Below the pieces are notes generated by a model. That model did not search any database, was not told where the DNA came from, and worked only from the letters and a program-made list of their open reading frames with translations. This document shows positions 1-19,926 of a DNA stretch of 21,703 nucleotides, piece after piece. The position numbers were made by a program, and so were the translations under genes. This stretch comes from Okeania sp. Its GTDB lineage: Bacteria; Cyanobacteriota; Cyanobacteriia; Cyanobacteriales; Microcoleaceae. The first letter of the stretch is position 1. Every line of letters begins with the position of its first letter. The stretch lies in the NCBI RefSeq assembly GCF_035285525.1, contig NZ_JAYKGW010000072.1, positions 1-21,703 of the forward strand, in the 5' to 3' direction.

Positions 1-45
1 TAGCCCCCCCTTCCATCTTAGCCCCCCCTTCCATCTTAGCCCCCC
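1..45. repeat. 18-bp tandem repeat inside the TPR protein CDS
   Basis: tagcccccccttccatct occurs at 1-18 and 19-36, and a partial third copy starts at 37. The repeat is in frame (6 codons) and gives GGAKME repeats on the minus strand. It may continue beyond the window edge. Confidence 0.8.
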
Positions 46-1684
46 TTTCAAAGGGGGGTTGGGGGGATTCATCAGAAGCTTCTGGCCACTTCATCACCGA
101 CTCTCGATACAAAGAAATCAAGCGATCGATATCTTCTGCCACCCCTAAGTCAATCATTTCCACCTCAGAAGGTTTTCCTTGAGCTAAAACAAACGCTAGA
201 TACCGCGCCTTCTGCCAACTATCATTCATAAAATCAAAGACTCGAAACCGCACGAACTCCAACAACTTCGCCCCCTCTGGTAACTCTGAAGCTACTGCCC
301 GTCTGTCGCCCATTTGTTGCTGCATGGCAATTTCTGGCACCTCTCGCGTTAACTGTCTTTCTAACTCATTACATTCTTTTTGCAGTTGAGCTAACTGTTG
401 TTTGTGAGCTTCCCGTTTTTCTGGTGGCGGTACTTGATAGGTAAATGCTAAAAGTTGGTCGCACTTTTCTCGCCACAGTCGGAAAATCTTTTGGAGTCGT
501 GGAGAACGATCGTGGAAGACTGCTTGGTTTTGAGCAGCAAGAGCAGTTGCAGTTAGAGCTTTCCGTTTGAGGACGAGATTTAATGCAGCTTGTTTTGCTA
601 CTTGGGAGTGGGGGAGATATTGGTAGACTAAGGAGAGGAATATTTCAAGGTTAGGTCTGACTTTTTCTTGAATGTGGGCAAGGCGATCGCTTTCGGAACT
701 AGAAGCAAAGATAACTTGGATAGTTTTATCTTGGATTTTGCTAGCTTTGAGCATTAGTTTGAATGCTTCTTTGGGGCGATCGGTTTTTGCTAGTAATCCT
801 GCCAGGTTGTTGAGGTGGGTGGCGAGTTGTGGATGATTGGCAGGCAGGGCGATTTTGTCGATTTCTATGGCTTGTTGGAACAATGGTTCCGCTGCCTCGT
901 ATCTCCCTTGAGATTCATATAGTCCTGCCAGGTTGTTGAGGTGGGTGGCGAGTTCTGGATGATTGGCAGGCAGGGCGATTTTGTCGATTTCTATGGCTTG
1001 TTGGTACAATGGTTCCGCTGCCTCGTATCTCCCTTGAGAACGATATAATTCTGCCAGGTTGTTGAGACTGGAGGCACGTTGTGGATGATTGGCAGGCAGG
1101 GCGATTTTGTCGATTTCTATGGCTTGTTGGTACAATGGTTCCGCTGCCTCGTATCTCCCTTGAGATTCATATAGTCCTGCCAGGTTGTTGAGGTGGGTGG
1201 CGAGTTGTGGATGATTGGCAGGCAGGGCGATTTTGTCGATTTCTATGGCTTGTTGGTACAAAGGTTCCGCTGCCTCGTATCTCCCTTGAGAACGATATAA
1301 TCCTGCCAGGTTGTTGAGGGAAGTCGCCACGTTGGCATGACTTTCTCCCCAGAGTTGTAGTGCTAATGTCGCTGCTTGTTCAGCAATAGGTATTGCTTCA
1401 TCATATTTGCCTGCGTTGTAGAGTTCAATCACTTCGTTATTTAGTTGTTCCCACTCCTCCATCATTTTTGCTAGTCCTTCAGCAAAGCTTTGCAACCATT
1501 CTGCATTGCTTTCCCCATTTTCTCCCATCTTAGCTGCTACCAATTTCATCACTTCTACAAAAGCTTCACCCAATAACTGGGAATTAGCGTGTAAAATTGC
1601 TTGCTCCTCCCCGTTAGGGCAAGTTAGCAGTTGTTTAATTAAATTTAGATCAGCTTCTAAGCGTTGTTGTTGCTCTTCGTTCAT
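1..1684 (-). CDS. TPR-repeat protein: N-terminal ~560 aa of a probable TPR-CHAT family protein (3' end lies left of the window)
   Basis: The ATG is at 1684-1682, 7 nt after AGGAGA (reverse complement of tctcct, 1692-1697). I checked the frame by hand at both ends and it is open to position 1. It is absent from the ORF track because it has no stop inside the window. The translation starts MNEEQQQRLEADLNLIKQLLTCPNGEEQAILHANSQLLGEAF. Five 42-aa TPR units follow (LNNLAGLY.SQGRYEAAEPLYQQAIEIDKIALPANHP), then a helical linker (..LVLKRKALTATALAAQNQAV..). This N-terminal layout is typical of cyanobacterial TPR-CHAT proteins. The CHAT domain itself is not in the window, so that part is inference. Confidence 0.8.
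   Translation of the reverse strand, partial: MNEEQQQRLEADLNLIKQLLTCPNGEEQAILHANSQLLGEAFVEVMKLVAAKMGENGESNAEWLQSFAEGLAKMMEEWEQLNNEVIELYNAGKYDEAIPIAEQAATLALQLWGESHANVATSLNNLAGLYRSQGRYEAAEPLYQQAIEIDKIALPANHPQLATHLNNLAGLYESQGRYEAAEPLYQQAIEIDKIALPANHPQRASSLNNLAELYRSQGRYEAAEPLYQQAIEIDKIALPANHPELATHLNNLAGLYESQGRYEAAEPLFQQAIEIDKIALPANHPQLATHLNNLAGLLAKTDRPKEAFKLMLKASKIQDKTIQVIFASSSESDRLAHIQEKVRPNLEIFLSLVYQYLPHSQVAKQAALNLVLKRKALTATALAAQNQAVFHDRSPRLQKIFRLWREKCDQLLAFTYQVPPPEKREAHKQQLAQLQKECNELERQLTREVPEIAMQQQMGDRRAVASELPEGAKLLEFVRFRVFDFMNDSWQKARYLAFVLAQGKPSEVEMIDLGVAEDIDRLISLYRESVMKWPEASDESPQPPFERGAKMEGGAKMEGGA
798..1427. repeat. 126-bp tandem repeat (5 units) encoding 42-aa TPR units
   Basis: Units start at 798, 924, 1050, 1176 and 1302, an exact 126-bp period. 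Units 1-4 are nearly identical at nucleotide level, with long identical cores (gatgattggcaggcagggcgattttgtcgatttctatggcttgttgg). Unit 5 is diverged. Confidence 0.9.
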
Positions 1685-1817
1685 ATTAGTTTCTCCTTAA
1701 TTTATTTGCATCATAATCTGATTAAACATTCCCGTGGTTGTAGTTGCCCATTAGCATCCTAACATAGACCTCTATTCCTTCAGCGCAACTAATAACCACC
1801 TGAGCGATCGCCATACC

Positions 1818-1901: not shown

Positions 1902-2198
1902 TCAAGCTTCCTCGTTTTCCTGAATAGCACGTTCGATTTCTTCTGCATTAGCCTCAGCATAAACCCAAGCATTAGCAATATCAGTAACCCGAAGAGTAGG
2001 ATAGTCTTGTAGCAACTCCGACTCACTCATACCCAAACGACGAGCATTAACTAATACCCACACAGGAATGCGAGTACCAGCAATACAAGCATCACCACCA
2101 CAAACACCCGGAGTTTTTTCAATACCAGAATAAATATTAGCCAAACTTTGAGCTAAAAGTTGGATAGCTTGAAGTTTTTCCGCTGGAGTTAATGCCAA
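1902..2198 (-). CDS. DUF433-type antitoxin-like protein (paralog 1, possibly decaying)
   Basis: This is a 98-aa ORF containing GVCGGDACIAGTRIPVWVLVNARRLG, the motif I associate with DUF433. It is highly similar to the paralog at 4845-5171. The paralog's start ATGAAATTAAAAGAT reads ATAAAATTAAAAGAT here (ATA at 2228-2226, in frame). About 12 nt carrying the paralog's GGAG Shine-Dalgarno are absent, so only a TTG start at 2198 remains. Confidence 0.6.
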   Translation of the reverse strand: MALTPAEKLQAIQLLAQSLANIYSGIEKTPGVCGGDACIAGTRIPVWVLVNARRLGMSESELLQDYPTLRVTDIANAWVYAEANAEEIERAIQENEEA

Positions 2199-2238
2199 AA
2201 GTTGGGGTTCTAAATCTTTTAATTTTATAGTATCTAAT

Positions 2239-2328
2239 GTAGGTTGGGTAGAACAAAGTGAAATTCAACAAAACCTTATTCTGATAAAAGGCTATTTTTG
2301 TTGGGTTTCGTTCCTCAACCCAACCTAC
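2239..2328. repeat. MITE-like or hairpin dispersed repeat (gtaggttggg ... cccaacctac)
   Basis: The arms gtaggttgggtagaac (2239-2254) and gttcctcaacccaacctac (2310-2328) form an imperfect inverted repeat. Related motifs (gtaggggtt(t)gg...ccaaaccc) recur at 6535-6562 and 14561-14612. Confidence 0.5.
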
Positions 2329-2443
2329 AGTTATTGAACTTCTACTCAAAGAACCTTAATTTGTTATAATGCCCATCTCAGGCAATTTTTTTCTCAATTC
2401 CTTTTTCGGGAAATAGAGGCGATCGCTTTTTTTTGGCAAACTT

Positions 2444-2472
2444 TTGAAAACACTATACAACTTATTTATATA
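2444..2472 (+). promoter_or_regulatory. Sigma70-type promoter for the Phd/YefM-like gene
   Basis: TTGAAA (2444-2449), an exact 17-nt spacer, then TATATA (2467-2472). The predicted TSS is about 30 nt upstream of the ATG at 2511. Confidence 0.55.
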
Positions 2473-2510
2473 TTAAAATCAGAATATCAAATCATTATCG
2501 CCGTGAAAGT

Positions 2511-2924
2511 ATGAAAAAATTGGACTTAAAGGAAACCAATATTGACCTAACAGTAATTATTGACGAAATTGCTGCTAACCAGTCTGAAGTTGTCATTACC
2601 CGCCAAGGTTTGCCAGTTGCTCGTATTGTTCCTTATACAATTTCTGACGCATCTACAAAAAATTATCCATTACGGGGAATGCCAATCAAAACTTCTGCTG
2701 ATTTCGATGAACCGATGTCTGAACTTTGGGATGCTTTAGGAGAACGAAAATTTGGTAGTGCGGGCATCTTGCCCGCGATGGGTGTACCTCATAACAGTCA
2801 AACCGCTGTATTATTGGGCAATCGGCTCAACCACAGTAAATGGAATATTTTCCAAAACTACCTGTGGCAAGTCGCCAGCACCCAAAACATTTTGGGCATC
2901 CAGAATTTCTACCCCAACCAATAA
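2511..2924 (+). CDS. Phd/YefM-family antitoxin-like protein with an abnormal 3' extension
   Basis: The N-terminal ~78 aa (MKKLDLKETNIDLTVIIDEIAANQSEVVITRQGLPVARIVPY...ADFDEPMSELWDALGE) look like a complete Phd/YefM-type antitoxin. The ORF then reads on for ~55 aa through a gcgggcatcttgcccgc hairpin repeat (about 2760-2776). It overlaps the convergent DUF2283 gene by ~110 nt, so the true 3' end is uncertain. No toxin gene follows. Confidence 0.6.
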   Translation: MKKLDLKETNIDLTVIIDEIAANQSEVVITRQGLPVARIVPYTISDASTKNYPLRGMPIKTSADFDEPMSELWDALGERKFGSAGILPAMGVPHNSQTAVLLGNRLNHSKWNIFQNYLWQVASTQNILGIQNFYPNQ

Positions 2925-3044
2925 TTCACCCTCACCGATATTGAGAGCTATTTCATCAGTTAAACGGAGAGTGCGACACTCATGTTTACCTTCTACTAAA
3001 CGAATGTAAACAGCATCAATTTCAGAATCATAACTAATTTTCAT
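2811..3044 (-). CDS. DUF2283-type small protein
   Basis: The ATG at 3044 is preceded by AGGAGA (caaggagaagacaATG). The 77-aa product is MKISYDSEIDAVYIRLVEGKHECRTLRLTDEIALNIGEGELLVGVEILDAQNVLG, a pattern I recognise as DUF2283. The 27 codons upstream in the ORF-track version run through a palindromic repeat and are probably not translated. Confidence 0.7.
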   Translation of the reverse strand: MKISYDSEIDAVYIRLVEGKHECRTLRLTDEIALNIGEGELLVGVEILDAQNVLGAGDLPQVVLENIPFTVVEPIAQ

Positions 3045-3054
3045 TGTCTTCTCC

Positions 3055-3104
3055 TTGTTAAAAAAACGATAACCCTGTAGGGACGTTGCATGCAACGTCC
3101 CTAC
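3055..3104 (-). terminator. Intrinsic-terminator-like element: 28-nt perfect palindrome followed by a T-run
   Basis: gtagggacgttgcatgcaacgtccctac lies at 3077-3104, 59 nt after the stop of the DUF4384 gene. On the minus strand it is followed by agggttatcgTTTTTTTaaca. Confidence 0.55.
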
Positions 3105-3162
3105 TTTATATTTTCTCCTCACCAATATTCAGTCATAAACTACCTCTGACTTGCGCGTAGCA

Positions 3163-3966
3163 CTAAACAACCTTATAATCCATATACCACAAAGTAGAAT
3201 CTGACTTACCCTCAAAATAGGCCAAAAATTCCTGCAAATGCTCTCCCTCCAAGTGTAAAGGTGGTTGATTTGGTTTCGGCAACCAATCTAACTTTGGGCG
3301 TTCGGGAGCGATCGCTACTATTATCTCCTCAACCCCTGGTTTACCTTTCAGCTTAAAAGATTTTATAGATGCTCCCTCCATTGGTAACAATACTGCACCC
3401 GCTTCATTAAAACTAGGAGAAGGCGCCAGAAACGAGGGCGACAAACAATAAAATTTGCCAGAAGTACCTTTTTCCAATAGAGTCAAATATCCCGGACGTT
3501 CCAACTGTACCTCAAATTTAATTTCACTGCCCAAAGGTACGCTACTAGGATAATCAGAATCATGTTGCCACATATCCATTGTGCTAACCTTTGGGATAAC
3601 GGGACCCATTTTATTAGTTGAAACAGCCATATTTTTCAACATATACCAACGATAAACTATTTCACGCAACCACCGTTTAGCAATTTCAACTTTATCTCTT
3701 TTCGCTCCCTCAAAATCACAACCTTCAGCCTCTAATTTTTTAAATATTGTTCTTAAAGAGTCACGCAAAATAATATCTGGCGTTGCTTTTTGACTAGCAT
3801 TTTCTAATAAATTCTCTGATAAAACATCAGCCAGTGCTGGATTATTACAATCATCATTATCTATTTTAAACCGTTGGATAAATACCAGCCTAGTTTTATC
3901 TTTAAGCATCAATATATCGGCTATTTTTTCTAGGAAAGTGTTGTAACTTTTCTCTAACATCATCAA
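3163..3966 (-). CDS. DUF4384-type protein with an unassigned ~110-aa helical N-terminal domain
   Basis: This is a 267-aa ORF with three consecutive ATG codons at the start. The C-terminal half (VPLGSEIKFEVQLERPGYLTLLEKGTSGKFYCLSP...LLPMEG...FKLKGKPGVEEIIVAIAPERP) fits the DUF4384 pattern as I remember it. I cannot name the N-terminal domain (KTRLVFIQRF...LRTIFKKLEAEGCDFEGAKRDKVEIAKRWL). Confidence 0.7.
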   Translation of the reverse strand: MMMLEKSYNTFLEKIADILMLKDKTRLVFIQRFKIDNDDCNNPALADVLSENLLENASQKATPDIILRDSLRTIFKKLEAEGCDFEGAKRDKVEIAKRWLREIVYRWYMLKNMAVSTNKMGPVIPKVSTMDMWQHDSDYPSSVPLGSEIKFEVQLERPGYLTLLEKGTSGKFYCLSPSFLAPSPSFNEAGAVLLPMEGASIKSFKLKGKPGVEEIIVAIAPERPKLDWLPKPNQPPLHLEGEHLQEFLAYFEGKSDSTLWYMDYKVV

Positions 3967-3994
3967 CTATTCCTTTTCGATAGGTTCGCCTACA

Positions 3995-4023
3995 ATTATA
4001 TTTCGATAAATTCAAACTAGCAA
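3995..4023 (-). promoter_or_regulatory. Near-consensus sigma70 promoter for the DUF4384 gene
   Basis: On the minus strand: TTGCTA (4023-4018), a 17-nt spacer (4017-4001), then TATAAT (4000-3995). The predicted TSS is near 3988, about 22 nt before the ATG at 3966, and aaggaa lies in that leader. Confidence 0.6.
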
Positions 4024-4030
4024 TAACAAT

Positions 4031-4158
4031 TCTACATATTTCTACATGACTCTATCTGGTTCTACATTGCTCTATTTTGATTCAAAACTTATCTTTTTTC
4101 TACTATTTTCAATTATTTCTACTTTAATCAAACTTCTATTTAACTCCTTTTTTTCTAT
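4031..4158. promoter_or_regulatory. Array of nine same-orientation TCTAY motifs, five of them at exact 10-bp phasing
   Basis: tctac/tctat occur at 4031, 4041, 4051, 4061 and 4071 (exact 10-bp spacing), then at 4099, 4118, 4135 and 4154. The array sits immediately upstream of the predicted -35 of the DUF4384 promoter, in the divergent intergenic region. Confidence 0.5.
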
Positions 4159-4193
4159 TTCCATATCCTAAATTTACTAATTAAGATAATAGT

Positions 4194-4397
4194 ATGGTTC
4201 AAAAAAATAAAGAGAATAAAATGTATAAGTCAACGAAAATATTATTAATCTCAATTATTGCTGGAAGTATTTTCAGTATTCTCTCAGTAATCAATAATCG
4301 GGATGCCCAACAAATTAGTCAAGCTATTGAAAGTGGAGTAACAATGACATCTAGTATTTCTGCTTTACTAATCAGCTTAAAAAATACCGAGGAATAG
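4194..4397 (+). CDS. Hypothetical small membrane protein (weak call)
   Basis: This is a 67-aa ORF with one hydrophobic stretch (ILLISIIAGSIFSILSV). I found no convincing RBS and no recognisable family. Confidence 0.3.
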   Translation: MVQKNKENKMYKSTKILLISIIAGSIFSILSVINNRDAQQISQAIESGVTMTSSISALLISLKNTEE

Positions 4398-4405
4398 TTA
4401 AATAG

Positions 4406-4495
4406 AAAGTCACGAAGATTAACAGTTAAAACAGCACGCTCATCTGCAACAGCTAATTTCATAGTTTATTCCTGGGTATCTATATAATATGTTAT
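4406..4495 (-). pseudogene. Remnant of a third DUF433/DUF5615 module (chimeric stub)
   Basis: catagtttattcctgggtatcta (from 4460) is homologous to the start and upstream region of the DUF433 gene at 5169 (catagttgactcctgagtatcta). The stub reads MKLAVADERAVLTVNLRDF. Its ERAVLT.N..DF matches the middle of the DUF5615 pseudogene (NERAVLTLNRVDFF). Confidence 0.4.
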
Positions 4496-4499
4496 TAAC

Positions 4500-4841
4500 T
4501 TATTGCTGTGGGCGTTTAACTCGAATCAATTGACCTTTTAACGTTTCTTGAGTACAAATTGCCTCATTAATTCTATTAGCCATCCTTTCTCTGTCAAAAT
4601 CATCCTTACAAGCAATAATACCCCCATGATTTGATGAAATACGATGCAGTCGAAAAAAATCAACTCGATTTAAAGTTAAAACTGCACGTTCATTTTGAGT
4701 AGCAAAAGCTAGTACCTCTGGATCGGGAATCTTTTGGTTAGCTAACCCCGCTTCTTACACTGTCAGAACATCGTGACCAAAAGTCCTGAGCAACTCCACA
4801 ACCCGTTTAGGAAACTGTTCGTCAGCATAGAGACGTGCCAT
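4500..4841 (-). pseudogene. DUF5615 (PIN-like) toxin gene with one in-frame nonsense codon
   Basis: The ATG at 4841 lies 3 nt after the DUF433 stop, a typical TA operon spacing. I translated the full 114-codon frame by hand: MARLYADEQFPKRVVELLRTFGHDVLTV*EAGLANQKIPDPEVLAFATQNERAVLTLNRVDFFRLHRISSNHGGIIACKDDFDRERMANRINEAICTQETLKGQLIRVKRPQQ*. The premature TAA is at 4757-4755 (codon 29). Confidence 0.75.
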
Positions 4842-4844
4842 AGG

Positions 4845-5171
4845 TTAAATCTCCTCATTTTCTCGAATAGCTAACTCAATATCCTGAGAATATACCTCAG
4901 TATAATTCCAAGCATTAACCAGATCCACTGCCTGGAGACTAGGATAGTCTTGCAACAACTCCGACTCACTCACTCCCAAACGACGAGCATTAACTAATAC
5001 CCACACAGGAATGCGAGTACCAGCAATACAAGCATCACCACCACAAACACCGGGAGTTTTTTCGATACCAGACCAAGTATTAGCTAAATTTTGAGTTAAA
5101 AGTTGGATAGCTTGAAATTTTTCTGTCGGAGTTAATGCCAAAAGTTGAGGTTCTAAATCTTTTAATTTCAT
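4845..5171 (-). CDS. DUF433-type antitoxin-like protein (paralog 2, intact)
   Basis: The ATG at 5171 is preceded by AGGAG (ctcaggagtcaactATG). The 108-aa product is MKLKDLEPQLLALTPTEKFQAIQLL...GVCGGDACIAGTRIPVWVLVNARRLG. The ORF-track version (to 5237) adds 22 unlikely N-terminal codons. Confidence 0.8.
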   Translation of the reverse strand: MKLKDLEPQLLALTPTEKFQAIQLLTQNLANTWSGIEKTPGVCGGDACIAGTRIPVWVLVNARRLGVSESELLQDYPSLQAVDLVNAWNYTEVYSQDIELAIRENEEI

Positions 5172-5347
5172 AGTTGACTCCTGAGTATCTACTATTATTT
5201 TATCTATCATATAATTTTCCCCATTAATTAACCACAATACAAAAATACGGCATAGATAATTTAGTCATCTAAAGATAACTTCAGCTATTAGCCAAGGATT
5301 TCAATTATTGGCGAACTTAGTGCATCGGATAGAAAATTATTCAGACA

Positions 5348-6247
5348 TCATATTACCTCTAGAAATAGTTGACTATTCAACCAATTCTCCACTTCTTCCA
5401 GAGTCTTGAAACCTAAAACTTCCTCTTCTAAAAGCTTAAATTGTTCCACAGATAAATCTTCCATTTTCATCTTAAATTCTCTAGGAATTTCTCCAAATTT
5501 ATGCTGAAGTTGAAGCAGAATTATTTCAGAATATGCCTTAGTTTGAGCAAAAATAATTCCTCCCTTATTGTCTTCAATAACCATTTCCTGCCTTTCCAAA
5601 AAATCTAATTCTTCTCTAGTTAAACTAGCGCGATTAGCAATATTTAAAGCCTCTTCTATTTCTGGCACTTCCCCTAAAGAATCGGGAATTACTTCTAAAT
5701 TAGGAGCATCTTTAAGAAAGTAAATCCACTTGTCGTTCAGGGTTTCTAATTCGGAAAGTTCCTTGTCAAATTTAGGTAATTCTAAAAAGATTAAGCTCAA
5801 TTCATCTCGGTAATTAAACTGCAGCTTGTCTTCTTTAAATCGAAATTTATTAATCATCTGAGAACTGTCTGGAAATAGCACAAAATCAGTAATCGTTAAA
5901 GCCAGATAAGGTCGTAAATTTGGATACTTTTCTCCTTTACCTAGTTGATTTCCGTAAGCTTTTGCTAAGTTATAAACTACTCGTTTCTCAAAAGCTTTGA
6001 CGTGAATTACCTGCATTTCTATAATGACGGTAGTACCATTATCTAATAATGCTTTTACATCCAGAAAGCTATCTTGAGAAACTTCAATTTTTCCTGGGTT
6101 GGCAGGGTCAATTATTGTTAGGGATTTAATAGTATTTGTGTTGTCGTAAATTATAGCATTGAGAAAGCTGATCGGGATGTTTTTATTCTTATCAGAAGCG
6201 AATATTTTTTTAAAAGCAAAGTCTGTTTTAGGGTCGATAAATCTCAT
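5348..6247 (-). CDS. Rpn-family recombination-promoting nuclease / PD-(D/E)xK putative transposase
   Basis: This is a 299-aa ORF. The N-terminus is MRFIDPKTDFAFKKIF, and the nuclease core is FLDV...VIIEMQV (D...E.Q). The helical C-terminal tail is as in the Rpn/Transposase_31 family. No terminal inverted repeats flank the gene. Confidence 0.8.
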   Translation of the reverse strand: MRFIDPKTDFAFKKIFASDKNKNIPISFLNAIIYDNTNTIKSLTIIDPANPGKIEVSQDSFLDVKALLDNGTTVIIEMQVIHVKAFEKRVVYNLAKAYGNQLGKGEKYPNLRPYLALTITDFVLFPDSSQMINKFRFKEDKLQFNYRDELSLIFLELPKFDKELSELETLNDKWIYFLKDAPNLEVIPDSLGEVPEIEEALNIANRASLTREELDFLERQEMVIEDNKGGIIFAQTKAYSEIILLQLQHKFGEIPREFKMKMEDLSVEQFKLLEEEVLGFKTLEEVENWLNSQLFLEVI

Positions 6248-6263
6248 ATTTATTTCTCCTTTT

Positions 6264-6307
6264 TTTGTGCAAAATCTTGAAAAGACTATACAACTTATTA
6301 TTATATA
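6264..6307 (+). repeat. Second copy of the ~45-bp promoter-like block seen at 2431-2472
   Basis: tttgtgcaaaatcTTGAAAagactatacaacttattattatata aligns with ttttggcaaacttTTGAAAacactatacaacttatttatata. No intact gene follows this copy on the + strand. Confidence 0.5.
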
Positions 6308-6313
6308 AATATT

Positions 6314-6489
6314 TTACTCATTAGTCATGTTTTTAATATGATTTATCAACCATTTATTGACTAAAATTTGTACGTCAGTTTTTCTCTGCCTTCGACATCT
6401 GGTTCGAGATAAATGGAGTAATTAAACTTAGCATCGGGATGGTAAAACTTGCCTGGTTTTGCTTGGGAAAAGTCGTATTCTAATTTCAT
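6314..6489 (-). pseudogene. Frameshifted remnant of a BrnA/CopG-type antitoxin (weak call)
   Basis: The ATG at 6489 gives MKLEYDFSQAKPGKFYHPDAKFNYSIYLEPDVEGREKLTYKF*. The (E)YDFS.AK.GKF...IYL.PDV pattern is typical of small RHH antitoxins. The expected C-terminal piece (ILVNKWLINHIKNMTNE*) is present only in another frame. Confidence 0.3.
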
Positions 6490-6659
6490 AATTACCTCTA
6501 TTGATAAACTTGAGTTTCAGTTCGTAGTTATCTGTAGGGGTTTGGTTTCCAAACCCAATAGACAGTATAAACAGTAAGCACAATAATTTCTGATGGTGCG
6601 TTAGCGACAACGTAACGCACCCTACTGGAGTGTTTCATCTAAAACTGTGCATTAGATAT

Positions 6660-7055
6660 TCTCCCTTATCTCCCTTGTCCTCCTTATCTCCCTTGTCCTC
6701 CTTATCTCCCTTATCTCCCTTGTCCTCCTTATCTACCTTGTCTCCCTTATCCTCCTTATCTCCCTTATCTCCCTTGTCCTCCTTATCTCCCTTATCTCCC
6801 TTGTCTCCCTTATCTCCCTTATCTCCCTTGTCTCCCTTATCCTCCTTATCTCCCTTATCCTCCTTGTCTCCCTTGTCCTCCTTATCTCCCTTGTCTCCCT
6901 TATCCTCCTTGTCTCCCTTATCTCCCTTATCTCCCTTATCCTCCTTATCCTCCTTGTCTCCCTTATCCTCCTTATCTCCCTTGTCTCCCTTGTCCTCCTT
7001 ATCTCCCTTGTCCTCCTTATCTCCCTTGTCCTCCTTGTCCTCCTTATCTTCCTTC
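6660..7055. repeat. Tandem array of a 9-bp unit TC(TC/CT)CCTT(A/G): 43 clean units plus 1 degenerate unit
   Basis: Units start at 6660+9n and I verified the register at 6732, 7020, 7029 and 7038. Only four unit types occur (tctccctta, tctcccttg, tcctcctta, tcctccttg), apart from one tctaccttg at 6732. The array ends 1-2 nt before the stop codon of the VOC gene (7057-7059). Confidence 0.95.
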
Positions 7056-7056
7056 T

Positions 7057-8073
7057 TTACTTACTAATTAAATTCCAAAAATAACCATCAGGAGCAACAA
7101 AAGAAAAACTCTGTTCCCCAAACTCATTATCAATAATATCTGTAATTTGTATCACTCCTGAATTTTTAATTCGCTCAAAATAATATTCTATATTATTAAC
7201 TCGATAAGTATACAAAGACATTCCTAAACAACCTGGTTGTGACTGATAATAACCAAACTCCAAATTAATATTTTCAGGAAACCGAATAATATACAATCTG
7301 CCAGATCGCGCTTTTTGCCAATCTGTGGAAGAGCGGGGATCGTCAAAAGCAGTCAGTGTAAATTTTTCCCCTGGTTGCAAATCAAAAATTTGTCTCGCTG
7401 CTTCCGAACTTTCATAAGAAGTTTCCGAGTTATCCCGCGATCGCAATAAACCCAACACATCCTCATAAAACTGCAAGGTTTCCTTACTATCATCCTGCAC
7501 TATCATCCCTACATGGGTAAATTGACTGGTTTTGAAAGTGCAATCAGGATTAATTTTGCCATATTCTGGCACTGTATAATTGAAACGTTGAAACAACACC
7601 TGGCGCGTCAATGGTTGCAACAACATCATTTCCCGGACTCCCACTGCGGGATCGATAAATGGGCGACCTTTATCTGTTTTATAAATTATCTCCCACTGGG
7701 GAAAAGTGTATTTGATTGGCAAACCTGCTAACTTGCCATCCTCAGCATGATTAAGAATATTCAAAACATCAGTAGTTAAACTTGTTGCCCAACGGTTGCC
7801 CAAAACTTTCATAGATGTCATTTGTAAACCTTGATTAATAGGTTTTTCCCAAACCATCAGGCGAATTAAACCATGATCGACATTTTGGTGATAGAGTCGA
7901 ATGGAACGCAAATTAGAATTGACTCCATATAAATTTTGAACCGTAGAAGCAGTTAATTCTCCTGTTTTGCCAATGCGATAACCAAATTGTTGCCAATATT
8001 GAATCATTGACAAAGGTTCAGTGGTACCGATACAGACTTCGTAGATACCTTCAATAGTGGGGTTATTATTCAT
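7057..8073 (-). CDS. Two-domain VOC (glyoxalase/bleomycin-resistance/dioxygenase) superfamily protein
   Basis: This is a 338-aa ORF. The second half begins FTHVGMIVQDDSKETLQFYEDVLGLL, a typical VOC beta-alpha-beta start. The first half (IEGIYEVCIGTTEPLSMIQYWQQFGY) looks like a second VOC module. Confidence 0.6.
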   Translation of the reverse strand: MNNNPTIEGIYEVCIGTTEPLSMIQYWQQFGYRIGKTGELTASTVQNLYGVNSNLRSIRLYHQNVDHGLIRLMVWEKPINQGLQMTSMKVLGNRWATSLTTDVLNILNHAEDGKLAGLPIKYTFPQWEIIYKTDKGRPFIDPAVGVREMMLLQPLTRQVLFQRFNYTVPEYGKINPDCTFKTSQFTHVGMIVQDDSKETLQFYEDVLGLLRSRDNSETSYESSEAARQIFDLQPGEKFTLTAFDDPRSSTDWQKARSGRLYIIRFPENINLEFGYYQSQPGCLGMSLYTYRVNNIEYYFERIKNSGVIQITDIIDNEFGEQSFSFVAPDGYFWNLISK

Positions 8074-8302
8074 ATTTTTTATAAATTTTATGGGAATTAG
8101 TTATAATCAAGCCTTAGTTTCTTTTTGGAAGTTTCAGAAGTGTTTCTGCTCTCACAAATTAGGGAGTGGTAGCTAACAACTGATAAAGCCATAATCCCAG
8201 AGTTTGATACTACTAAAAAAATGCTTTTATCCTGTTAAACATAATTCTCTCCTTTAATTTTATTAATGTGAAATAAACATCAATAAATCCGTATATCTGT
8301 TG

Positions 8303-8716
8303 TTAGGCAAAAGGGTTAATAATTCATGTCTTCTGTGCAACCAATTGATTATGCTGCAGATATTCTGAATAGAGAATAGTGCAGTTTTGCAGCAATGCTG
8401 CCCATAAAACTAAACTCTCCCAATCAGAATCACCGTAGTTATTATTAATTTCCAAAGCATTTCAAACAGTTATAGTATCAATTGCCCATACTTAAAAATT
8501 AGTTGAAAGTTCTATGATGATTTGTTTTGCCTCTTGCTAGGTTGTTAAATTCTTTTGAGTTAATACCTTGTAAAGTTCACCCAAAATCCGGGTACTAATG
8601 CTAATATAATCAAAGCGATCGCTGACTAGCTGTCTGGCTTTTGATACTTTATATTGGGGATTTTTAGCATATAAATAAACCCAAACATTAGTATCTATCA
8701 TTACCTTATATATCAT
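8303..8716 (-). pseudogene. PIN-domain (VapC-like) toxin gene with four in-frame nonsense codons
   Basis: I translated a single 138-codon frame by hand: MIYKVMIDTNVWVYLYAKNPQYKVSKARQLVSDRFDYISISTRILGELYKVLTQKNLTT*QEAKQIIIELSTNF*VWAIDTITV*NALEINNNYGDSDWESLVLWAALLQNCTILYSEYLQHNQLVAQKT*IINPFA*. The internal stops are at 8539-8537, 8494-8492, 8464-8462 and 8326-8324. No frameshift is needed to read the whole gene. Confidence 0.7.
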
Positions 8717-8920
8717 ATAATTCTCCCCGGTTAAATTGATAGTTATCTGGCCAAGCAAAAGAATATTCGTCTACTAACTGCCAAAATCTTTCCTTGTTAT
8801 CCTGAATAACATCTGCCTCTACTAAAATAACTTTAAGTTTTTTCCCTCTAATTCTGGACTAAGTTGTTCAGTAAATATCAGATTACCATTTTGACAAGTT
8901 GCTTGTAGAACTTTGTACAT
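8706..8920 (-). pseudogene. Cognate small antitoxin gene with a 1-nt frameshift in an A-run
   Basis: The ATG at 8920 follows AGGAG. Frame 1 gives MYKVLQATCQNGNLIFTEQLSPELEGKNLKLF*. Shifting one nucleotide at gggAAAAAAc (about 8837-8846) restores KKLKVILVEADVIQDNKERFWQLVDEYSFAWPDNYQFNRGELYDI*. That stop overlaps the PIN start (ATGATATATAA). Confidence 0.6.
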
Positions 8921-9055
8921 ATTAATTTACTCCTGCCATAATTTTAATTTTCTCTAACTTTTTAGTACAGTTATAGCCTAACTAATTATTTCATATCCAT
9001 AACACAAAATATAGAAATCCTATTTTATTTGTGTAGAAAAATCCTACTAATTTTA

Positions 9056-9109
9056 GGAAAAAGGGAATAGGGAGAAGTAATTTTTTTCCCCTACTCCCTA
9101 CTCCCTATT
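9056..9109 (-). terminator. Possible intrinsic terminator after the HtrA-like gene
   Basis: On the minus strand AAUAGGGAG (9109-9101) pairs with CUCCCUAUU (9074-9066), followed by CCCUUUUUCC. The loop is long at 26 nt. Confidence 0.4.
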
Positions 9110-9111
9110 TT

Positions 9112-10326
9112 CTAATAATTCATTTGTCCGCTAACAACAAATAACTGCTTTTCTCTACCATTTCGGAGGATTTTAAACTGCAATTTTTCACCTACACCAC
9201 TATTTTCAACTTTCCTCTGTAATTGTTCTGCACTAACTATTGATTGATTATCAATTTCCACAATTACATCTCCTATTCGGATCCCCGATTTTTCTGCTGG
9301 AGTACCAGACAATACTTTAGTAACTAAAACTCCTTCTACCTCTGGCAAAATTAAAACAGAATTAGGGTCACTATTATTTTCTTCAGCAACTTCTGGAGTT
9401 AAACTAATCATCTGAATACCAACAAAAGGATGAGGTACTTGTTCTCCACGAGCTAATACATCTTTAATTTCTTTAGCTTTATTGATAGGAATAGCAAAAC
9501 CAATTCCCATAGCATCAGCTCTAATTGCCGTATTAATTCCTATTACTTCTCCCTGAGAATTTAACAACGGACCCCCAGAATTTCCAGGATTAATTGCTGC
9601 ATCAGTTTGAATAAAATCTAATCTTTTATCAGGGATTCCTACTGCCGAACTAGGGCGTTTCAAACTACTAATAATTCCTAAAGTAACAGTATTATTAAAT
9701 CCTAAAGGATTTCCTACTGCTATTGCCCAATCTCCTACTTGTACTAAATCAGAATTACCTAAAGTTGCTACTGGTAAAATTTCTCCTTTAGTATCAACTT
9801 TAACTACTGCTAAATCTGTAATTTTATCTGTTCCTTTTACTTCTCCAACAAACTTTCTACCATCATTTAAACTAACAGTAACTTTGTCAGCTTCATCTAC
9901 TACATGAGCATTGGTTAAAATTATGCCTTTGGAGTCAATAATAAAACCAGAACCTTCACCTTTTAACAATTCTTGTGAAGGTGCCTGCATCCTGAAGTTA
10001 TTATCAAAAAAACGGTCAAAAAATGGGTCTTCAAAAAAAGCATTATTTGGACGAGTAATTAATCGTTCGGTGTCAATTCTCACTACAGCTAAACCAACTT
10101 TATTAACTGCTTCAGTAACAAAGCTATTACTATTTCTAGTATTAATATTTTCTGGTATAGCTTGCAATGCTAATAACTGAGGATTTGATAATCCGGCAAA
10201 TATTCTTGAAGTTGCCATTGCTGGTGACGTAGTTAAAGAAGCCACCATAAATGTAAAAGCTACAAAAGAGGCCAAAAATTGAGCTGTGATTTTGGTAGTT
10301 ATTCGACAAAAATTTAACAATCTCAT
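9112..10326 (-). CDS. HtrA/Deg (HhoA/HhoB-like) periplasmic serine protease with a PDZ domain
   Basis: This is a 404-aa ORF with a signal-like N-terminus (..FTFMVASLTTSPAMA). The S1C catalytic motifs are TNAHVV, DLAVVKV and GNSGGPLLN. A C-terminal PDZ-like segment is present (GVLVTKVLSGTPAEKSGIRIGDVIVEIDNQ). Confidence 0.9.
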   Translation of the reverse strand: MRLLNFCRITTKITAQFLASFVAFTFMVASLTTSPAMATSRIFAGLSNPQLLALQAIPENINTRNSNSFVTEAVNKVGLAVVRIDTERLITRPNNAFFEDPFFDRFFDNNFRMQAPSQELLKGEGSGFIIDSKGIILTNAHVVDEADKVTVSLNDGRKFVGEVKGTDKITDLAVVKVDTKGEILPVATLGNSDLVQVGDWAIAVGNPLGFNNTVTLGIISSLKRPSSAVGIPDKRLDFIQTDAAINPGNSGGPLLNSQGEVIGINTAIRADAMGIGFAIPINKAKEIKDVLARGEQVPHPFVGIQMISLTPEVAEENNSDPNSVLILPEVEGVLVTKVLSGTPAEKSGIRIGDVIVEIDNQSIVSAEQLQRKVENSGVGEKLQFKILRNGREKQLFVVSGQMNY

Positions 10327-10405
10327 AGTGTTAATATTGGATTGACTAAAGTGGTAAGTTTAGTGTTATAATATCACCAATGGTACAATATTATACTATA
10401 AATTT

Positions 10406-10774
10406 ATGGTAATATCTAATCAACAAAAAAAACAGGCAACTAATCACGAAGTTCAGGAGGATTTCAATTCTGAACATCACCATCATTCTTCTAGTCATCC
10501 TCATGTTCATAGCGAAGAATCTCTACAAAGTTTAATCAATAGATTATCAAGAATTGAAGGACACGTTAGAGGAATTAAAACTATGATTAAAGATAATCGT
10601 CCTTGTCCTGATGTCTTGATACAAATAGCAGCAGTTCGTGGTGCTTTAGACCGAGTAGCTCGCATGGTTTTGGATAATCATTTATCTGATTGTATTGCTC
10701 GGGCAACTCAAGATGGAGATATTGATGTAGAAATTGCTGCTTTAAAGTCAGCTTTAGACAGATTTTTACCTTGA
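10406..10774 (+). CDS. CsoR/RcnR-family metal-sensing repressor with a His-rich N-terminus (InrS-like)
   Basis: This is a 122-aa ORF containing LINRLSRIEGHVRGIKTMI..RPCPDVLIQIAAVRGALDRVARMVL.NHLSDC, with the C...H...C ligand pattern. An N-terminal tract SEHHHHSSSHPHVHSE is present. Confidence 0.85.
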   Translation: MVISNQQKKQATNHEVQEDFNSEHHHHSSSHPHVHSEESLQSLINRLSRIEGHVRGIKTMIKDNRPCPDVLIQIAAVRGALDRVARMVLDNHLSDCIARATQDGDIDVEIAALKSALDRFLP

Positions 10775-11023
10775 GGAAGGAAAAAGTAAGTAAGAAAAAA
10801 AAGACTTCAGTTATTCAGGAGAGAAGAAATAAATATGCTAAGTAGTTGTGCAAAATTACAGCGGATTCTAAGTTTATGTTATATAAATTGTAACACAGCC
10901 TTCTAGGCTGTTATATCTGTACCAGACTAAGATGGAATCCCCTGTAATTGCACATATTTAGAAATATAAATGTATAGTATAAAAGCCAAATACACTTTTA
11001 TAAAATATAGTCAAAAAAAAATT

Positions 11024-11701
11024 ATGTGGAAAAAAATAGCTTTTTGGTTACTTTGGATAGGGTTTGGTGTTTATGCTTTTGTACTTGCTCCACCCGATCA
11101 ACCAGATACTTTAGAATTAATCCAAAAACTCTCAACAGGTGAATGGGAAAATATTAATCCTTTGATTATTTCTCTATTCAATATTATGGGAATTTGGCCG
11201 TTAATTTATAGTTGTTTATTATTCTTTGATGGTAGAGAACAAAAAGTACCAGCATGGTTATTTTCTACTTTATCATTTGGAGTCGGAGCATTTGCGATTT
11301 TACCCTATTTAGGATTGCGTAAACCTAATCCAAATTTTTATGGAAAAAAGAATCTTTGGCTTAATATATTAGACTCTCGAATTTTAGGAATTGCTTTAAC
11401 ATTAGGTACAATTTTATTACTAATATATGGTTTAAAAAATGGCGACTGGGGAGATTTTATTCAACAGTGGCAAAGTAATAGATTTATTCATGTAATGAGT
11501 CTGGATTTTTGTATGTTGTGTTTATTATTTCCTACTCTATTAGGAGATGATATGAACAGACGAGGAATGGAAAAAAATCTCTGGTATTGGATAGCATTAA
11601 TTCCACTTTTAGGTCCGTTAATTTATTTGTCTGTGCGTTCCCCTTTATTAACAACTGATATCTCTACAATATCAGAACAAAAGCAAGTTATTGCCAATTA
11701 A
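11024..11701 (+). CDS. Multi-pass membrane protein of unknown function
   Basis: I prefer the ATG at 11024 (MWKKIAFWLLWIGFGVYAFVLAPP...) to the ORF-track start at 10970. Several hydrophobic segments are present. I cannot name a family. Confidence 0.6.
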   Translation: MWKKIAFWLLWIGFGVYAFVLAPPDQPDTLELIQKLSTGEWENINPLIISLFNIMGIWPLIYSCLLFFDGREQKVPAWLFSTLSFGVGAFAILPYLGLRKPNPNFYGKKNLWLNILDSRILGIALTLGTILLLIYGLKNGDWGDFIQQWQSNRFIHVMSLDFCMLCLLFPTLLGDDMNRRGMEKNLWYWIALIPLLGPLIYLSVRSPLLTTDISTISEQKQVIAN

Positions 11702-11755
11702 TAGGAAGTTCCGAAAAACAGATAAAAACAATTTCCTTTTTGGCAGAACAACCGT

Positions 11756-11783
11756 GTAGGGACGTTCCATGGAACGTCCCTAC
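11756..11783. terminator. 28-nt perfect palindrome between convergent genes (possible bidirectional terminator or dispersed repeat)
   Basis: gtagggacgttccatggaacgtccctac lies between the stop at 11701 (+) and the stop at 11796 (-). It is the same family as the palindrome at 3077-3104. Confidence 0.5.
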
Positions 11784-11795
11784 TTCCTCTATTAT

Positions 11796-12821: not shown

Positions 12822-12847
12822 GGTGCGTTACATTTCATTAACGCACC
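12822..12847. repeat. ggtgcgtta...taacgcacc hairpin repeat overlapping the radical SAM stop codon
   Basis: ggtgcgttacatttcattaacgcacc has 9-bp arms. The same arm sequence recurs at 6596-6622 and, half of it, in the 12.5-12.7 kb cluster. Confidence 0.7.
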
Positions 12848-14463
12848 CTAAAAACTTCTTCCTTAGCTTCAGCTAAATGTTTTTTCAAAGTTGCCACAGG
12901 TAGAGGACCTTGAATATGATTCCAAGGCAAAGTTTGTTCTAATTCCCAATTATTAAAAACATAAAAATCTAACTCTGGCAACTTCCCATGCAATTCCTTA
13001 AAAGCTCTTTTATAACTACCTAAAGAATCTCCATAATTTCTCACCAATTCTAACAAATAAGATAACCTTCTATCCCCTCTCGAAATTAACCCTTGAATTA
13101 CCGACCATTTATAACTTTCTGGGCGAAAATCTATACCCTTTGAACGTAATTTTTTCTCCAAAAACTTCAATCTTTTTTCTGACTTATCATTTACCCCAAA
13201 CCATTGAAAAGGAGTATGAGATTTCGGCACAAAAGTGCTGCAACCTAAACTTAATCTCAACCCAGGAACAACTTTTTTCAAAGTTAACATCATCTCTACA
13301 GTCACCTCTAAATCTTCTTCCTCTTCTCCAGGTAAACCCACCATTCCATAAAATTTAATCCCTTTCAAACCACCAAGTTTAGCATTAATAGCAGCTTGAA
13401 TAATTTCCTCATTTTCTAACTTTTTATTGATAATTTTCCGGAGGCGATCGCTACCACTTTCCACAGCAATAGTAATTGACTTTGTATCTCGACTAGCTAA
13501 AATTTTTGCCAATTTTTCTGTCACTGTATTGGTTCTAACTGAGGCAATACTCAACCGAATATCATCATATTTTGCTTGGGATAAATAATCTAATAAACTT
13601 TCAAATTCTGGATGTTGAGTTACGGAAGCACCCAATAAACCTAAACGTTTAGTAACAGTTAATCCTCTTTCAATTGCTGGAATTAGAGACCCTTCTAAAC
13701 TAGCAGTTCTAAACGGTAAAGTCAGATAACTTGCCAAACAAAAACGACACATTTCGGGGCAACTTCTGACAACTTCAACCATAAAAATATTTTCCCAAGC
13801 AGCCTTTTCTGTAACCACAGTCGAAGCAGATAAAATATTACTTCGATAAGTTTGTTTTTGCACCACAGGAGGAATATCTTTATCTATAGGTTCAATAGAT
13901 TTAATCGCACCATCATTACTTTCATAAATTACTTCATAAAGACTAGGAATATAAACCCCAGGTACTTGAGCTAAATGTTTTAATTGTTCTAATTTTTCAG
14001 CAGTTCTCACTGTTTTATAATTATCAATAAAATCTGCCAATAAATTTTCCCCATCTCCCAATAAAATCACATCAAAAAAATCAGCAAAAGGTTCTGGATT
14101 AGCTGTTAAAACTGGTCCGCCACCAAATATTATGGGATAGTTTTTTCCCGAACGATTTTTAGTTCTAATCGGAATTTCTAGAGATTCTAAAATAGAGAAA
14201 ATATTGACATAATCAAGTTCCCAAGAAAGAGAAAAACCGAATAATTCTGGTTGTTGTGGCAGAGGTTCATTAATATCAGTAAATAAACGACTAACTTGTA
14301 GATCGGAACGCATTGCTAAAGTTGCCCAAACAATCTGATAACCAAGACTTGTTATTCCCACAGTATATTCATTGGGAAAAGCAAAAATAATTGGAATAGC
14401 ATTAGATTCAGGAATAGCTGGAGTAAAGAGTAAATTTTCAGTATTAAATAAATTATCAGACAT
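12838..14463 (-). CDS. Large radical SAM protein with an N-terminal B12-binding-like region
   Basis: This is a 541-aa ORF. The CX3CX2C cluster motif is VVRSCPEMCRFCLASY. The remainder looks like the conserved ~530-aa cyanobacterial radical SAM family (GGGPVLTANPEP, FYGMVGLPGEEEEDL). Confidence 0.85.
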   Translation of the reverse strand: MSDNLFNTENLLFTPAIPESNAIPIIFAFPNEYTVGITSLGYQIVWATLAMRSDLQVSRLFTDINEPLPQQPELFGFSLSWELDYVNIFSILESLEIPIRTKNRSGKNYPIIFGGGPVLTANPEPFADFFDVILLGDGENLLADFIDNYKTVRTAEKLEQLKHLAQVPGVYIPSLYEVIYESNDGAIKSIEPIDKDIPPVVQKQTYRSNILSASTVVTEKAAWENIFMVEVVRSCPEMCRFCLASYLTLPFRTASLEGSLIPAIERGLTVTKRLGLLGASVTQHPEFESLLDYLSQAKYDDIRLSIASVRTNTVTEKLAKILASRDTKSITIAVESGSDRLRKIINKKLENEEIIQAAINAKLGGLKGIKFYGMVGLPGEEEEDLEVTVEMMLTLKKVVPGLRLSLGCSTFVPKSHTPFQWFGVNDKSEKRLKFLEKKLRSKGIDFRPESYKWSVIQGLISRGDRRLSYLLELVRNYGDSLGSYKRAFKELHGKLPELDFYVFNNWELEQTLPWNHIQGPLPVATLKKHLAEAKEEVFRVR

Positions 14464-14496
14464 ACTTTAACAGTTATCAGTTATCAGTTATTAGTA

Positions 14497-14612
14497 CGCA
14501 AAGAAACCCGGTTTCTCCTAGAAACCGGGTTTCTGGGTTTCCGGGTATTGTAATCCAATCGTAGGGGTTGGCTCTCCAAACCCAATCGTAGGGGTTGGCT
14601 CTCCAAACCCAA
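14497..14612. repeat. Hairpin repeat (gaaacccggtttc type) followed by a 27-bp tandem repeat of about 2.3 copies
   Basis: The hairpin region is gcaaagaaacccggtttctcctagaaaccgggtttct at about 14497-14535. The unit ccaatcgtaggggttggctctccaaac occurs at 14555 and 14582, and a partial third copy follows. Confidence 0.8.
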
Positions 14613-14615
14613 TAG

Positions 14616-19416: not shown

Positions 19417-19926
19417 ATTCTTAATAAGGAAGGGAACAGGGAATAGTTTTGACTATTTGTCACGGACAAATTTTCTGATAGTTAGGGTTTGCTGAAAAAG
19501 TATATATGGGTTAGGGTAGTCTTAAAAGTGAATGGCCATTTGCCATGAAGAATATAAAAGATTATTTATTATAGTGCAATACAGTTTCCTAGGAAATGCT
19601 GCACAAACAGATAATATCAAACCCGCTGGTTACGGTTCCCCATAAATTGGAGAATAAGGTTCTACCATTCCTAGTATGTAGAGGGTAAGGTTCCCGAAAA
19701 ATTGGAGACCAAACCCCTATAGGAAATGAATTTTAACGATACTACCGGATTTGATATAATACCAAAACTCATAAGGTATCTACCTATAAGACTCATGTAC
19801 TTTCCTTCCTTCTGCCTTCTTCCTCCTTCCTTCTTCCTTAACTAAAAGGAATTAACATCGATCCCCGAAGATGTTAAATTGTTCTTTAGCTAAAATAATT
19901 AAAGAGAAAAATATAGGAAAATTGCG

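Follow-up and report, generated by a model that had tools for sequence, protein, structure and literature searches.

A long nonamer repeat directly downstream of a VOC-family gene in Okeania sp. is probably a non-coding member of a stop-codon-associated repeat family of filamentous cyanobacteria

The short tandemly repeated repetitive (STRR) elements, which are heptamers, were reportedly described from heterocystous cyanobacteria by Mazel et al. in 1990. The function of one such element, a hairpin located between hupS and hupL, is unknown, and roles in transcript stability or translational coupling have been proposed (PMC2670836). The GGGGA(C/T)T repeats found in Nostoc sp. PCC 7120 are G-rich and strand-asymmetric, comprise up to 26 units, are intergenic in 68% of cases and were proposed to act through nucleic-acid structure; heptamers have been described, and units of 6-9 nt are in general rarely reported (Rehm et al. 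2015, PMC4692102). TAACTGA heptamers of Beggiatoaceae and cyanobacteria are located just upstream of start codons, reach up to 43 copies in cyanobacteria, and have been suggested to play a post-transcriptional role (MacGregor 2015, PMC4679880). In a broader sense, long simple sequence repeats (LSSR) with units of 5-11 nt are over-represented in some cyanobacteria, which was attributed to polymerase slippage, and heptamers dominate the LSSR surveys with other unit sizes being 'normally represented', at least in the form in which these surveys are quoted in later papers (Mrazek et al. 2007 via PMC4679880, PMC4692102). Here we analyzed a tandem array of nonamers in Okeania sp. (assembly GCF_035285525.1, contig NZ_JAYKGW010000072.1), which follows the stop codon of a gene of the VOC/glyoxalase family in a stretch of 21,703 nt; this whole stretch is referred to as the window throughout.

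The array occupies positions 6660-7046 and consists of 43 consecutive 9-mers in a single register with zero indels, the minus strand representing the mRNA sense. Read on the plus strand, TCTCCCTTA is present in 14 copies, TCTCCCTTG and TCCTCCTTA in 12 copies each and TCCTCCTTG in four; the remaining unit, TCTACCTTG (plus-strand letters, 6732-6740), is a variant whose altered base is the A at 6735. In the mRNA sense this corresponds to 26 YAAGGGAGA units, 16 YAAGGAGGA units and one CAAGGTAGA, with T at the first unit position in 26 units and C in 17 (i.e. A at plus-strand position 9 in 26 of the 43). The preliminary description of this DNA had listed the 43 units, the four main types, the single variant and the lack of indels correctly; to these we add a degenerate 44th unit (TCTTCCTTC on the plus strand, GAAGGAAGA in the mRNA sense; 7047-7055, minus strand), which comes first when the array is read in this sense and begins 1 nt past the stop codon. 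Tandem Repeats Finder (TRF) called the array at 6660-7054 and additionally found periods of 18, 27 and 45, and a two-unit pattern had 43 matches in the window, whereas 100 dinucleotide-preserving shuffles gave an expectation of 0.01. The array is thus genuine and greatly exceeds chance, and its classification as a tandem simple-sequence repeat is supported. Taken together with the evidence from other genomes presented below, it is probably a non-coding simple-sequence repeat (minisatellite) of a purine-rich nonamer family, (YAAGGRRGA)n, that is located in the 3' untranslated region (UTR) of the VOC gene and has grown by slippage. It holds the typical site of this family, immediately 3' of a stop codon and with the purine strand in the mRNA sense.

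The VOC gene (Pfam Glyoxalase; 7057-8073, minus strand) encodes a protein of 338 amino acids, which is full length with respect to homologues of 336-347 amino acids. The most similar VOC proteins are those of Okeania spp. (87-90% identity) and Trichodesmium (84%), members of the Oscillatoriales (Okeania: family Microcoleaceae), and an earlier assignment to the Nostocales therefore had to be given up. A single base (7056) separates the stop codon (TAA, 7057-7059) from the array, consistent with the 1-2 nt noted before; since this gap leaves no space for a terminator, the array should be part of the VOC 3' UTR, and the geometry thus agrees with the earlier view that the minus strand is the VOC sense strand. 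The C-terminus ...WNLISK followed by TAA is common to the VOC genes of Okeania SIO3I5, Okeania SIO2F4 and Trichodesmium, so that the stop codon must be ancestral, while the array would be a lineage-specific addition directly after it. The order of the genes (radical SAM, cyclase, CsoR-like repressor, HtrA and VOC) has been kept in the same three genomes, and in none of them could a nonamer array be found past the VOC stop, the downstream DNA being different in each. In Okeania SIO3I5 a G-rich 14-mer repeat is present on the sense strand about 100 nt past the VOC stop, and in Okeania SIO2F4 the stop is followed by CTCCCTA heptamers, within which a convergent ORF (open reading frame) of 229 amino acids ends. 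The TAG of this ORF lies inside a (GGGAGTA)n array (locus L002, 3429-3450), and in heptamers of this type all frames run into a stop within three units.

A genome scan for (TCYYCCTTR)x4, comprising one genome per species and 185,579 species, retrieved at least 120 stretches; all counts for the family given here and in the following refer to the 131 arrays in the loci of the matches listed. Nearly all of these matches are from filamentous or pleurocapsalean cyanobacteria (Calothrix, Tolypothrix, Nostoc, Fischerella, Stigonema, Scytonema, Symploca, Caldora, Coleofasciculaceae, Xenococcaceae and Okeania), and several arrays per genome are common, for example on several contigs of Calothrix anomala FACHB-343 and of Caldora SIO3E6. 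The few non-cyanobacterial matches (Streptomyces, Clostridium, Olsenella and others) are all located inside long ORFs, in the frame encoding KGD. Long ORFs contain 25 of the 131 arrays, with all six frames in use, and about 106 are located outside them, mostly in short stop-free contexts. Eight of the array-bearing ORFs were confirmed by Pfam as genuine multidomain genes, among them those encoding a ClC channel (with CBS and Usp domains), a CheA-like kinase, a GH38 alpha-mannosidase, CHASE2 and CHASE3 hybrid histidine kinases, a PEP-utilising enzyme and an AcrB transporter; in these confirmed genes the array reads KGD/KED, QGG/QGR or RGT/RET and is often found between domains or in loops. As the arrays are mostly intergenic and those within genes make use of all six frames, it is the DNA sequence, and not a protein, that defines the family. 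With respect to unit composition, TCTCCCTTG is the most frequent unit elsewhere, followed by TCCCCCTTG and then by TCTTCCTTG and TCCTCCTTG at similar frequencies, and about 94% of the units carry a G at plus-strand position 9. At four loci (L025, L094, L018 and L060) a purine repeat inside a genuine gene is directly followed by a pyrimidine repeat, the protein showing first (QGG/QGR)n or (KGD/KED)n and thereafter (SPL/SPP)n, and here a complete purine-loop-pyrimidine hairpin module appears to be accommodated in frame by a coding sequence.

For the analysis of array positions, intergenic arrays were oriented with the purine strand forward, and ORFs of at least 100 amino acids served as proxies for genes. 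The 53 arrays with a co-directional upstream neighbour showed a median gap of 38 nt to its stop codon, compared with 128-149 nt in the other three neighbour classes. Moreover, 17 of these 53 arrays were located within 15 nt of the stop, in contrast to 0 of 43 and 0 of 38 in the two classes of right-hand neighbours (Fisher p = 1.5e-5 and 4.8e-5). In spacers whose two genes both run in the purine-sense direction ('>>') the array was nearer to the upstream stop in 19 out of 21 cases, and in convergent spacers ('><') in 17 out of 21, whereas no bias was seen in spacers of the opposite orientation ('<<' or '<>'). The latter represent an internal control, which excludes short 3' spacers or ORF calling as a cause. 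The upstream genes of stop-hugging arrays are diverse and mutually unrelated, and for several arrays the stop codon is itself the YAA position of a first, partial unit. The loci retrieved with a T-variant pattern in a second scan, of metagenomes, provide a partial replicate. What had been noted for the VOC array as 'abutting a stop codon' is therefore not a coincidence and reflects a family-wide rule.

As a second control we used G-rich heptamer and octamer arrays from the same loci that are more than 400 nt away from any nonamer array. Their median gap to the co-directional upstream stop was only 7 nt, with 47 of 69 within 15 nt, compared to medians of 116 and 135 nt in the other classes (Mann-Whitney p = 1e-13 and 4e-11); this stronger effect may in part reflect that many heptamers contain stops in all frames. 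The window itself contains a second G-rich repeat hugging a stop codon. Starting 5 nt past the stop of the HtrA-like gene (TAG, 9112-9114, minus strand), (AGGGAGT)x2.7, an A-rich loop, CTTCTCCCTATTCCCT and TTTTT succeed one another and together constitute a repeat-built, terminator-like hairpin (9050-9114; -28.8 kcal/mol, z = -4.6) with its pyrimidine arm present. A purine-rich heptamer run, (AAGGAAG)n, is further found on the minus strand of an ORF-poor region at 19805-19839, about 46 nt past a stop-free stretch of 95 codons. Seeding of arrays from the Shine-Dalgarno (SD) sequences of operons was ruled out, as half of the stop-hugging cases are located between convergent genes. The literature searched, in which coverage of subscription journals is thin so that earlier descriptions are possible, contained nothing specific on a cyanobacterial nonamer repeat or on the stop-codon rule, and we present both as new within the LSSR class.

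The array would have grown by slipped-strand mispairing or unequal exchange in blocks of one to three units. Block-wise growth is suggested by recurrent unit pairs and triples (GG-EA and GA-GG-EA, where the first letter denotes the core, G for GGGAGA and E for GGAGGA, and the second letter plus-strand position 9), by the TRF periods of 18, 27 and 45, and by internal repeats of 44 nt, the longest exact repeat inside the array. Signals of higher-order periodicity are weak (z = 1.8 at a lag of 3 units and z = 2.0 at one of 5 units). The array would be specific to this lineage, transcribed together with the VOC mRNA, and left untranslated. It would most likely have no dedicated function at the VOC locus, as it is missing the pyrimidine partner arm by which about one fifth of the related arrays become long hairpins past stop codons.

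Several observations weigh against this explanation. Neighbouring units are identical less often than expected by chance (lag-1 identity of 0.095 versus 0.253, z = -2.5), and only two of four core types are used in the window array, without single-step intermediates. With 44 units versus 4-26 elsewhere it is longer than any array listed in the genome scan, and T occupies mRNA-sense position 1 in 26 of its 43 units versus about 6% in other arrays. In addition, only one array is present in the visible 21.7 kb, dispersal being known from other genomes, and the array interior (6690-7009, 320 nt) rests on one assembly. Finally, a strong rule of position and orientation is hard to square with pure neutrality, and either some selection or a biased mutation process acts on the family.

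As an alternative, which we regard as unlikely, the array might be a functional RNA element of the 3' UTR. Cyanobacteria are not known to possess Rho. An SD-like purine tract immediately past the stop codon might bind the anti-SD sequence of 30S subunits or post-termination ribosomes, or else a purine-binding protein, or it might form a stable RNA:DNA hybrid, and could in this way protect the 3' end of the mRNA or aid termination without Rho. The SD-like character of the units, pointed out in the preliminary description, was confirmed by calculation against an assumed 16S tail (GAUCACCUCCUUU): each unit pairs with this tail at -5 to -11 kcal/mol, GGAGGA units reaching -11.1 and GGGAGA units -8.5 kcal/mol. 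Furthermore, the stop-hugging sense rule applies to nonamers as well as to the independent G-rich heptamers and octamers, in many genera and next to diverse genes; the array contains no start codon, so that a bound 30S subunit could not initiate, and the proposals made for STRR hairpins (PMC2670836) point in a similar direction. The array may act as a sponge for 30S subunits or the 16S tail, as a pause element or as a stabiliser. However, most genes in the window lack an SD sequence, and SD pairing is therefore not dominant in this organism; the closest relatives manage without an array at the VOC gene; and the RNA structures considered below likewise speak against this alternative.

The array cannot serve as the SD sequence of a downstream gene. 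It includes no start codons, and in the family the nearest downstream co-directional ORF starts at least 21 nt away (median 138 nt). The sole unit preceding an ATG is the last one of the array, 7 nt after which a mini-ORF of five codons begins (ATG CAC AGT TTT AGA TGA, encoding MHSFR; 6635-6652, minus strand); this is probably due to chance. A recognisable SD sequence at most 25 nt upstream of the start codon was found for about 3 of 14 ORFs in the window.

Related arrays are often compound, the stop codon being followed by G-rich heptamers, then by nonamers, a short AT-rich loop and finally pyrimidine-rich repeats, the last of which often represent the complement TCYYCCTTG. Their predicted duplexes with the next 130 nt have a median energy of -26.5 kcal/mol compared with -18.3 kcal/mol for the preceding 130 nt, and about 20 of 103 arrays have a complementary downstream arm with which they form long repeat-built hairpins at about -38 kcal/mol or lower, matching published STRR hairpins such as that between hupS and hupL (PMC2670836). 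The window array has no such partner: AAGGRRGA does not occur on the plus strand anywhere in the window, and the duplex of the array with the downstream 130 nt (-22.5 kcal/mol, z = +0.8) is unremarkable, which rules out the array as a hairpin arm. The 596-nt VOC 3' region folds no better than shuffled sequences (z = -0.37), the array remaining unpaired, and a terminator scan found no terminator after the array. Nor are stop-hugging arrays in general enriched in an independent downstream hairpin (median z 0.04 for 37 arrays), which is thus not supported as a general rule. A hairpin GGUGCGUUA-N9-UAACGCACC (6595-6621, minus strand; -16 kcal/mol, z -3.3), located 37 nt past the array in the mRNA sense and without a U-tract, is a candidate 3'-end structure of the VOC transcript. 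Another one, GGGUUUGG-AAA-CCAAACCC (6538-6556, minus strand; -14.6 kcal/mol, z -3.9), also lacks a U-tract and is a copy of a small dispersed hairpin repeat, GGGGTTTGG-N3/4-CCAAACCCC, of which four copies are located at 6538-6556, 14555-14613 and around 19700-19720; two of them are arranged as tandem 27-mers, and the repeat has a REP-like (repetitive extragenic palindrome) or MITE-like (miniature inverted-repeat transposable element) look. A promoter-like site is located at 6559-6587; plus-strand transcription from it, if it occurred, would bring the suggested mimicry of the anti-SD into play.

One might go further and propose that purine- or G-rich tandem repeats right after stop codons, with the G-rich strand in sense, are a general 3'-end signal of filamentous cyanobacteria, which seems to us quite unlikely. 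If true, such repeats could mark the point at which a transcript becomes ribosome-free, and might act via capture of 30S subunits by their anti-SD, via purine-rich RNA:DNA hybrids or via repeat-built hairpins, either ending transcription or stabilising the mRNA; the 44-unit VOC array would then be an extreme case without a partner arm.

Could the interior of the array, i.e. its copy number and the order of its variants, be in part an artefact of assembly? Two Logan contigs from SRR19514071, the only other read set that carries this locus, agree exactly with the window over their whole length (7010-11784 and 4975-6689) and stop 46 and 30 nt inside the array, respectively. That these independent k=31 contigs break there, and that many related arrays are located at contig ends of draft genomes, is what such an artefact would lead one to expect. 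On the other hand, both array junctions are supported by being exact in this second assembly, and since variants are interspersed and the longest internal repeat measures 44 nt, ordinary reads of 100-150 nt should be able to order the units. We consider an artefact, a concern raised earlier, very unlikely; the second assembly bears out the junctions, and the interior is taken from the first assembly. The junction between VOC gene and array had no match in the metagenome scan, the region 5300-8400 had none among plasmids by megablast, and a scan of the whole window with Rfam gathering thresholds was likewise without a match.

The preliminary description had also attributed H-DNA or triplex potential to the array, and together with G-quadruplexes this leads to the notion of a DNA structural element that acts on replication, recombination or transcription. 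One strand is indeed 8/9 pyrimidine, GGG is present in 26 units, cyanobacteria are reported to be rich in G-quadruplex and triplex motifs (PMC4692102, PMC4666352), and the array is located at a synteny break. Its longest perfect mirror arms, however, measure only 7 nt, and a purine breaks the pyrimidine strand every 9 nt so that uninterrupted pyrimidine runs do not exceed 9 nt; H-DNA or triplex potential could therefore not be substantiated. The G-quadruplex reading is weak: 16 of the 43 units lack a G3 run, just one run of six GGGAGA units fits G3-N6 x4, and allowing for G-quadruplexes lowers the predicted RNA energy by only 8 kcal/mol over 596 nt. The synteny break lies between different species and is not attributable to the array. 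A structural role at the DNA level appears highly improbable.

Translation of the array, either as (KGD/KED)n attached to VOC by frameshifting, as an arginine-rich read-through tail, or as (SPL/SSL)n from the plus strand, can be dismissed almost with certainty. It is true that the frames are open. The SPL/SSL frame on the plus strand and the KGD/KED frame on the minus strand (7060 to 6638, 141 codons) are both uninterrupted, as described previously, but they are not the only ones, because all three plus-strand frames are open across the array; the continuation of the VOC frame (RRT/REI) contains one stop only, the TAG of the variant unit at 6732-6740. It is also true that the nonamer repeat is translated inside genuine genes elsewhere, KGD being the commonest of those frames, and that the T-variant arrays of the general metagenome scan are mostly KGD-frame coding repeats inside ORFs of unrelated, diverse organisms (43 of the arrays in 120 loci). 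Yet open frames are a consequence of unit composition and as such uninformative. The KGD/KED frame has no start codon, as already noted in the preliminary description, there being no ATG, GTG or TTG in any frame on the purine strand of the array. It is directly preceded by TAG TAA, and the junction AGT AAG TAA A, which is the same in the second assembly, is not a slippery site. The KGD peptide scores 27.2 bits with Pfam Collagen, which equals the cut-off, with no individual stretch passing; Glu replaces Gly in 16 units, and Gly fails to recur at each third position. Together with the lack of a start codon and the TAG TAA upstream, this ruled out a collagen-like or KGD protein. On the plus strand, a mechanical ORF of 145 amino acids (6630-7067) with SPL/SSL repeats and a GTG start overlaps the 3' end of VOC in antisense. 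Its best match in Pfam stays below threshold, its GTG is not preceded by a properly spaced SD sequence, and it was discarded as a gene, being open only because the strand cannot hold a stop. The low-complexity peptide considered earlier thus finds no support, with no start for KGD, two stops upstream, and no frame conserved across the family, and we conclude from these sequence features that the array should be untranslated here. Mutagenesis of the type mediated by diversity-generating retroelements was dropped because the variation is not adenine-specific.

The window has a G+C content of 36.5%. Beyond the VOC 3' end it contains a patch of small mobile or toxin-antitoxin-like genes (1902-6489) that is not present in the relatives. 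This patch comprises two DUF433 genes (1902-2198 and 4845-5237), a Phd/YefM-like gene (2511-2924), a DUF4384 gene (3163-3966), a PDDEXK_2/DUF4351 gene of the Rpn type (5348-6247) and an ORF of 42 amino acids (6361-6489). Further to the left, a TPR_12/TPR_10 gene (2-1696, minus strand), which extends past the left window end, includes tandem repeats of 126 bp (42 amino acids) at 794-1319, and a C-rich repeat of 18 bp, TAGCCCCCCCTTCCATCT, is found in 2.7 copies at the very start of the window (1-49).

If the array is an untranslated simple-sequence repeat of the VOC 3' UTR, the SPL ORF of 145 amino acids can be removed from the annotation as a false gene, and so can a false C-terminal tail of VOC. 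The array represents a tract that breaks short-read assemblies, and it could serve as a variable number tandem repeat for strain typing, similar to STRR-PCR for Nostoc. Above all, the stop-hugging of nonamers (17 of 53 versus 0 of 43) and of G-rich heptamers and octamers (median gap of 7 versus 116-135 nt) offers a testable hypothesis on the function of STRR-type repeats, a question open since 1990.

Among the known systems, the STAB-SD of Bacillus thuringiensis cry3A is reportedly an SD-like sequence with no part in initiation, 30S binding to which was proposed to protect the mRNA. It is a single site in a 5' UTR, whereas the window array would present 43 tandem sites in a 3' UTR. The TAACTGA repeats share with the nonamers a short direct unit and a fixed position with respect to the boundary of a coding region, but they are located just upstream of starts, the nonamers just downstream of stops. 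One such array is present in the window: (TAACTGA)x4 on the minus strand (TTATCAG on the plus strand; 14467-14495) ends 4 nt before the ATG with which the radical-SAM gene (12838-14463) starts, i.e. the same repeat at the same position as described in other genomes (PMC4679880). The GGGGA(C/T)T units form canonical G-quadruplexes, in contrast to the window array with its G3 runs in 26 of 43 units and little predicted quadruplex energy, and only 18% of them are found on the coding strand between aligned ORFs (PMC4692102), compared with the stop-hugging of the G-rich heptamers and octamers in sense orientation seen here. The closest resemblance is to the STRR heptamers. Like these, the nonamers are short head-to-tail units that are dispersed in filamentous cyanobacteria and mostly intergenic (PMC2670836, PMC4692102), often form hairpins next to genes, at least in the related arrays, and are often directly flanked by G-rich heptamer arrays. 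They differ in that the unit is 9 and not 7 nt long, which explains why nonamer arrays are tolerated in frame inside genes, in that the host of the window array is an Okeania-like member of the Oscillatoriales, and in that this array attains the considerable length of 44 units, uses two core types and is devoid of a hairpin partner. With its unit size the array falls into the 5-11 nt class of LSSR and meets the LSSR definition (units of 1-11 nt), but not the strict heptamer definition of STRR; in effect, it is the nonamer counterpart of the heptameric STRR sequences within the STRR/LSSR class.

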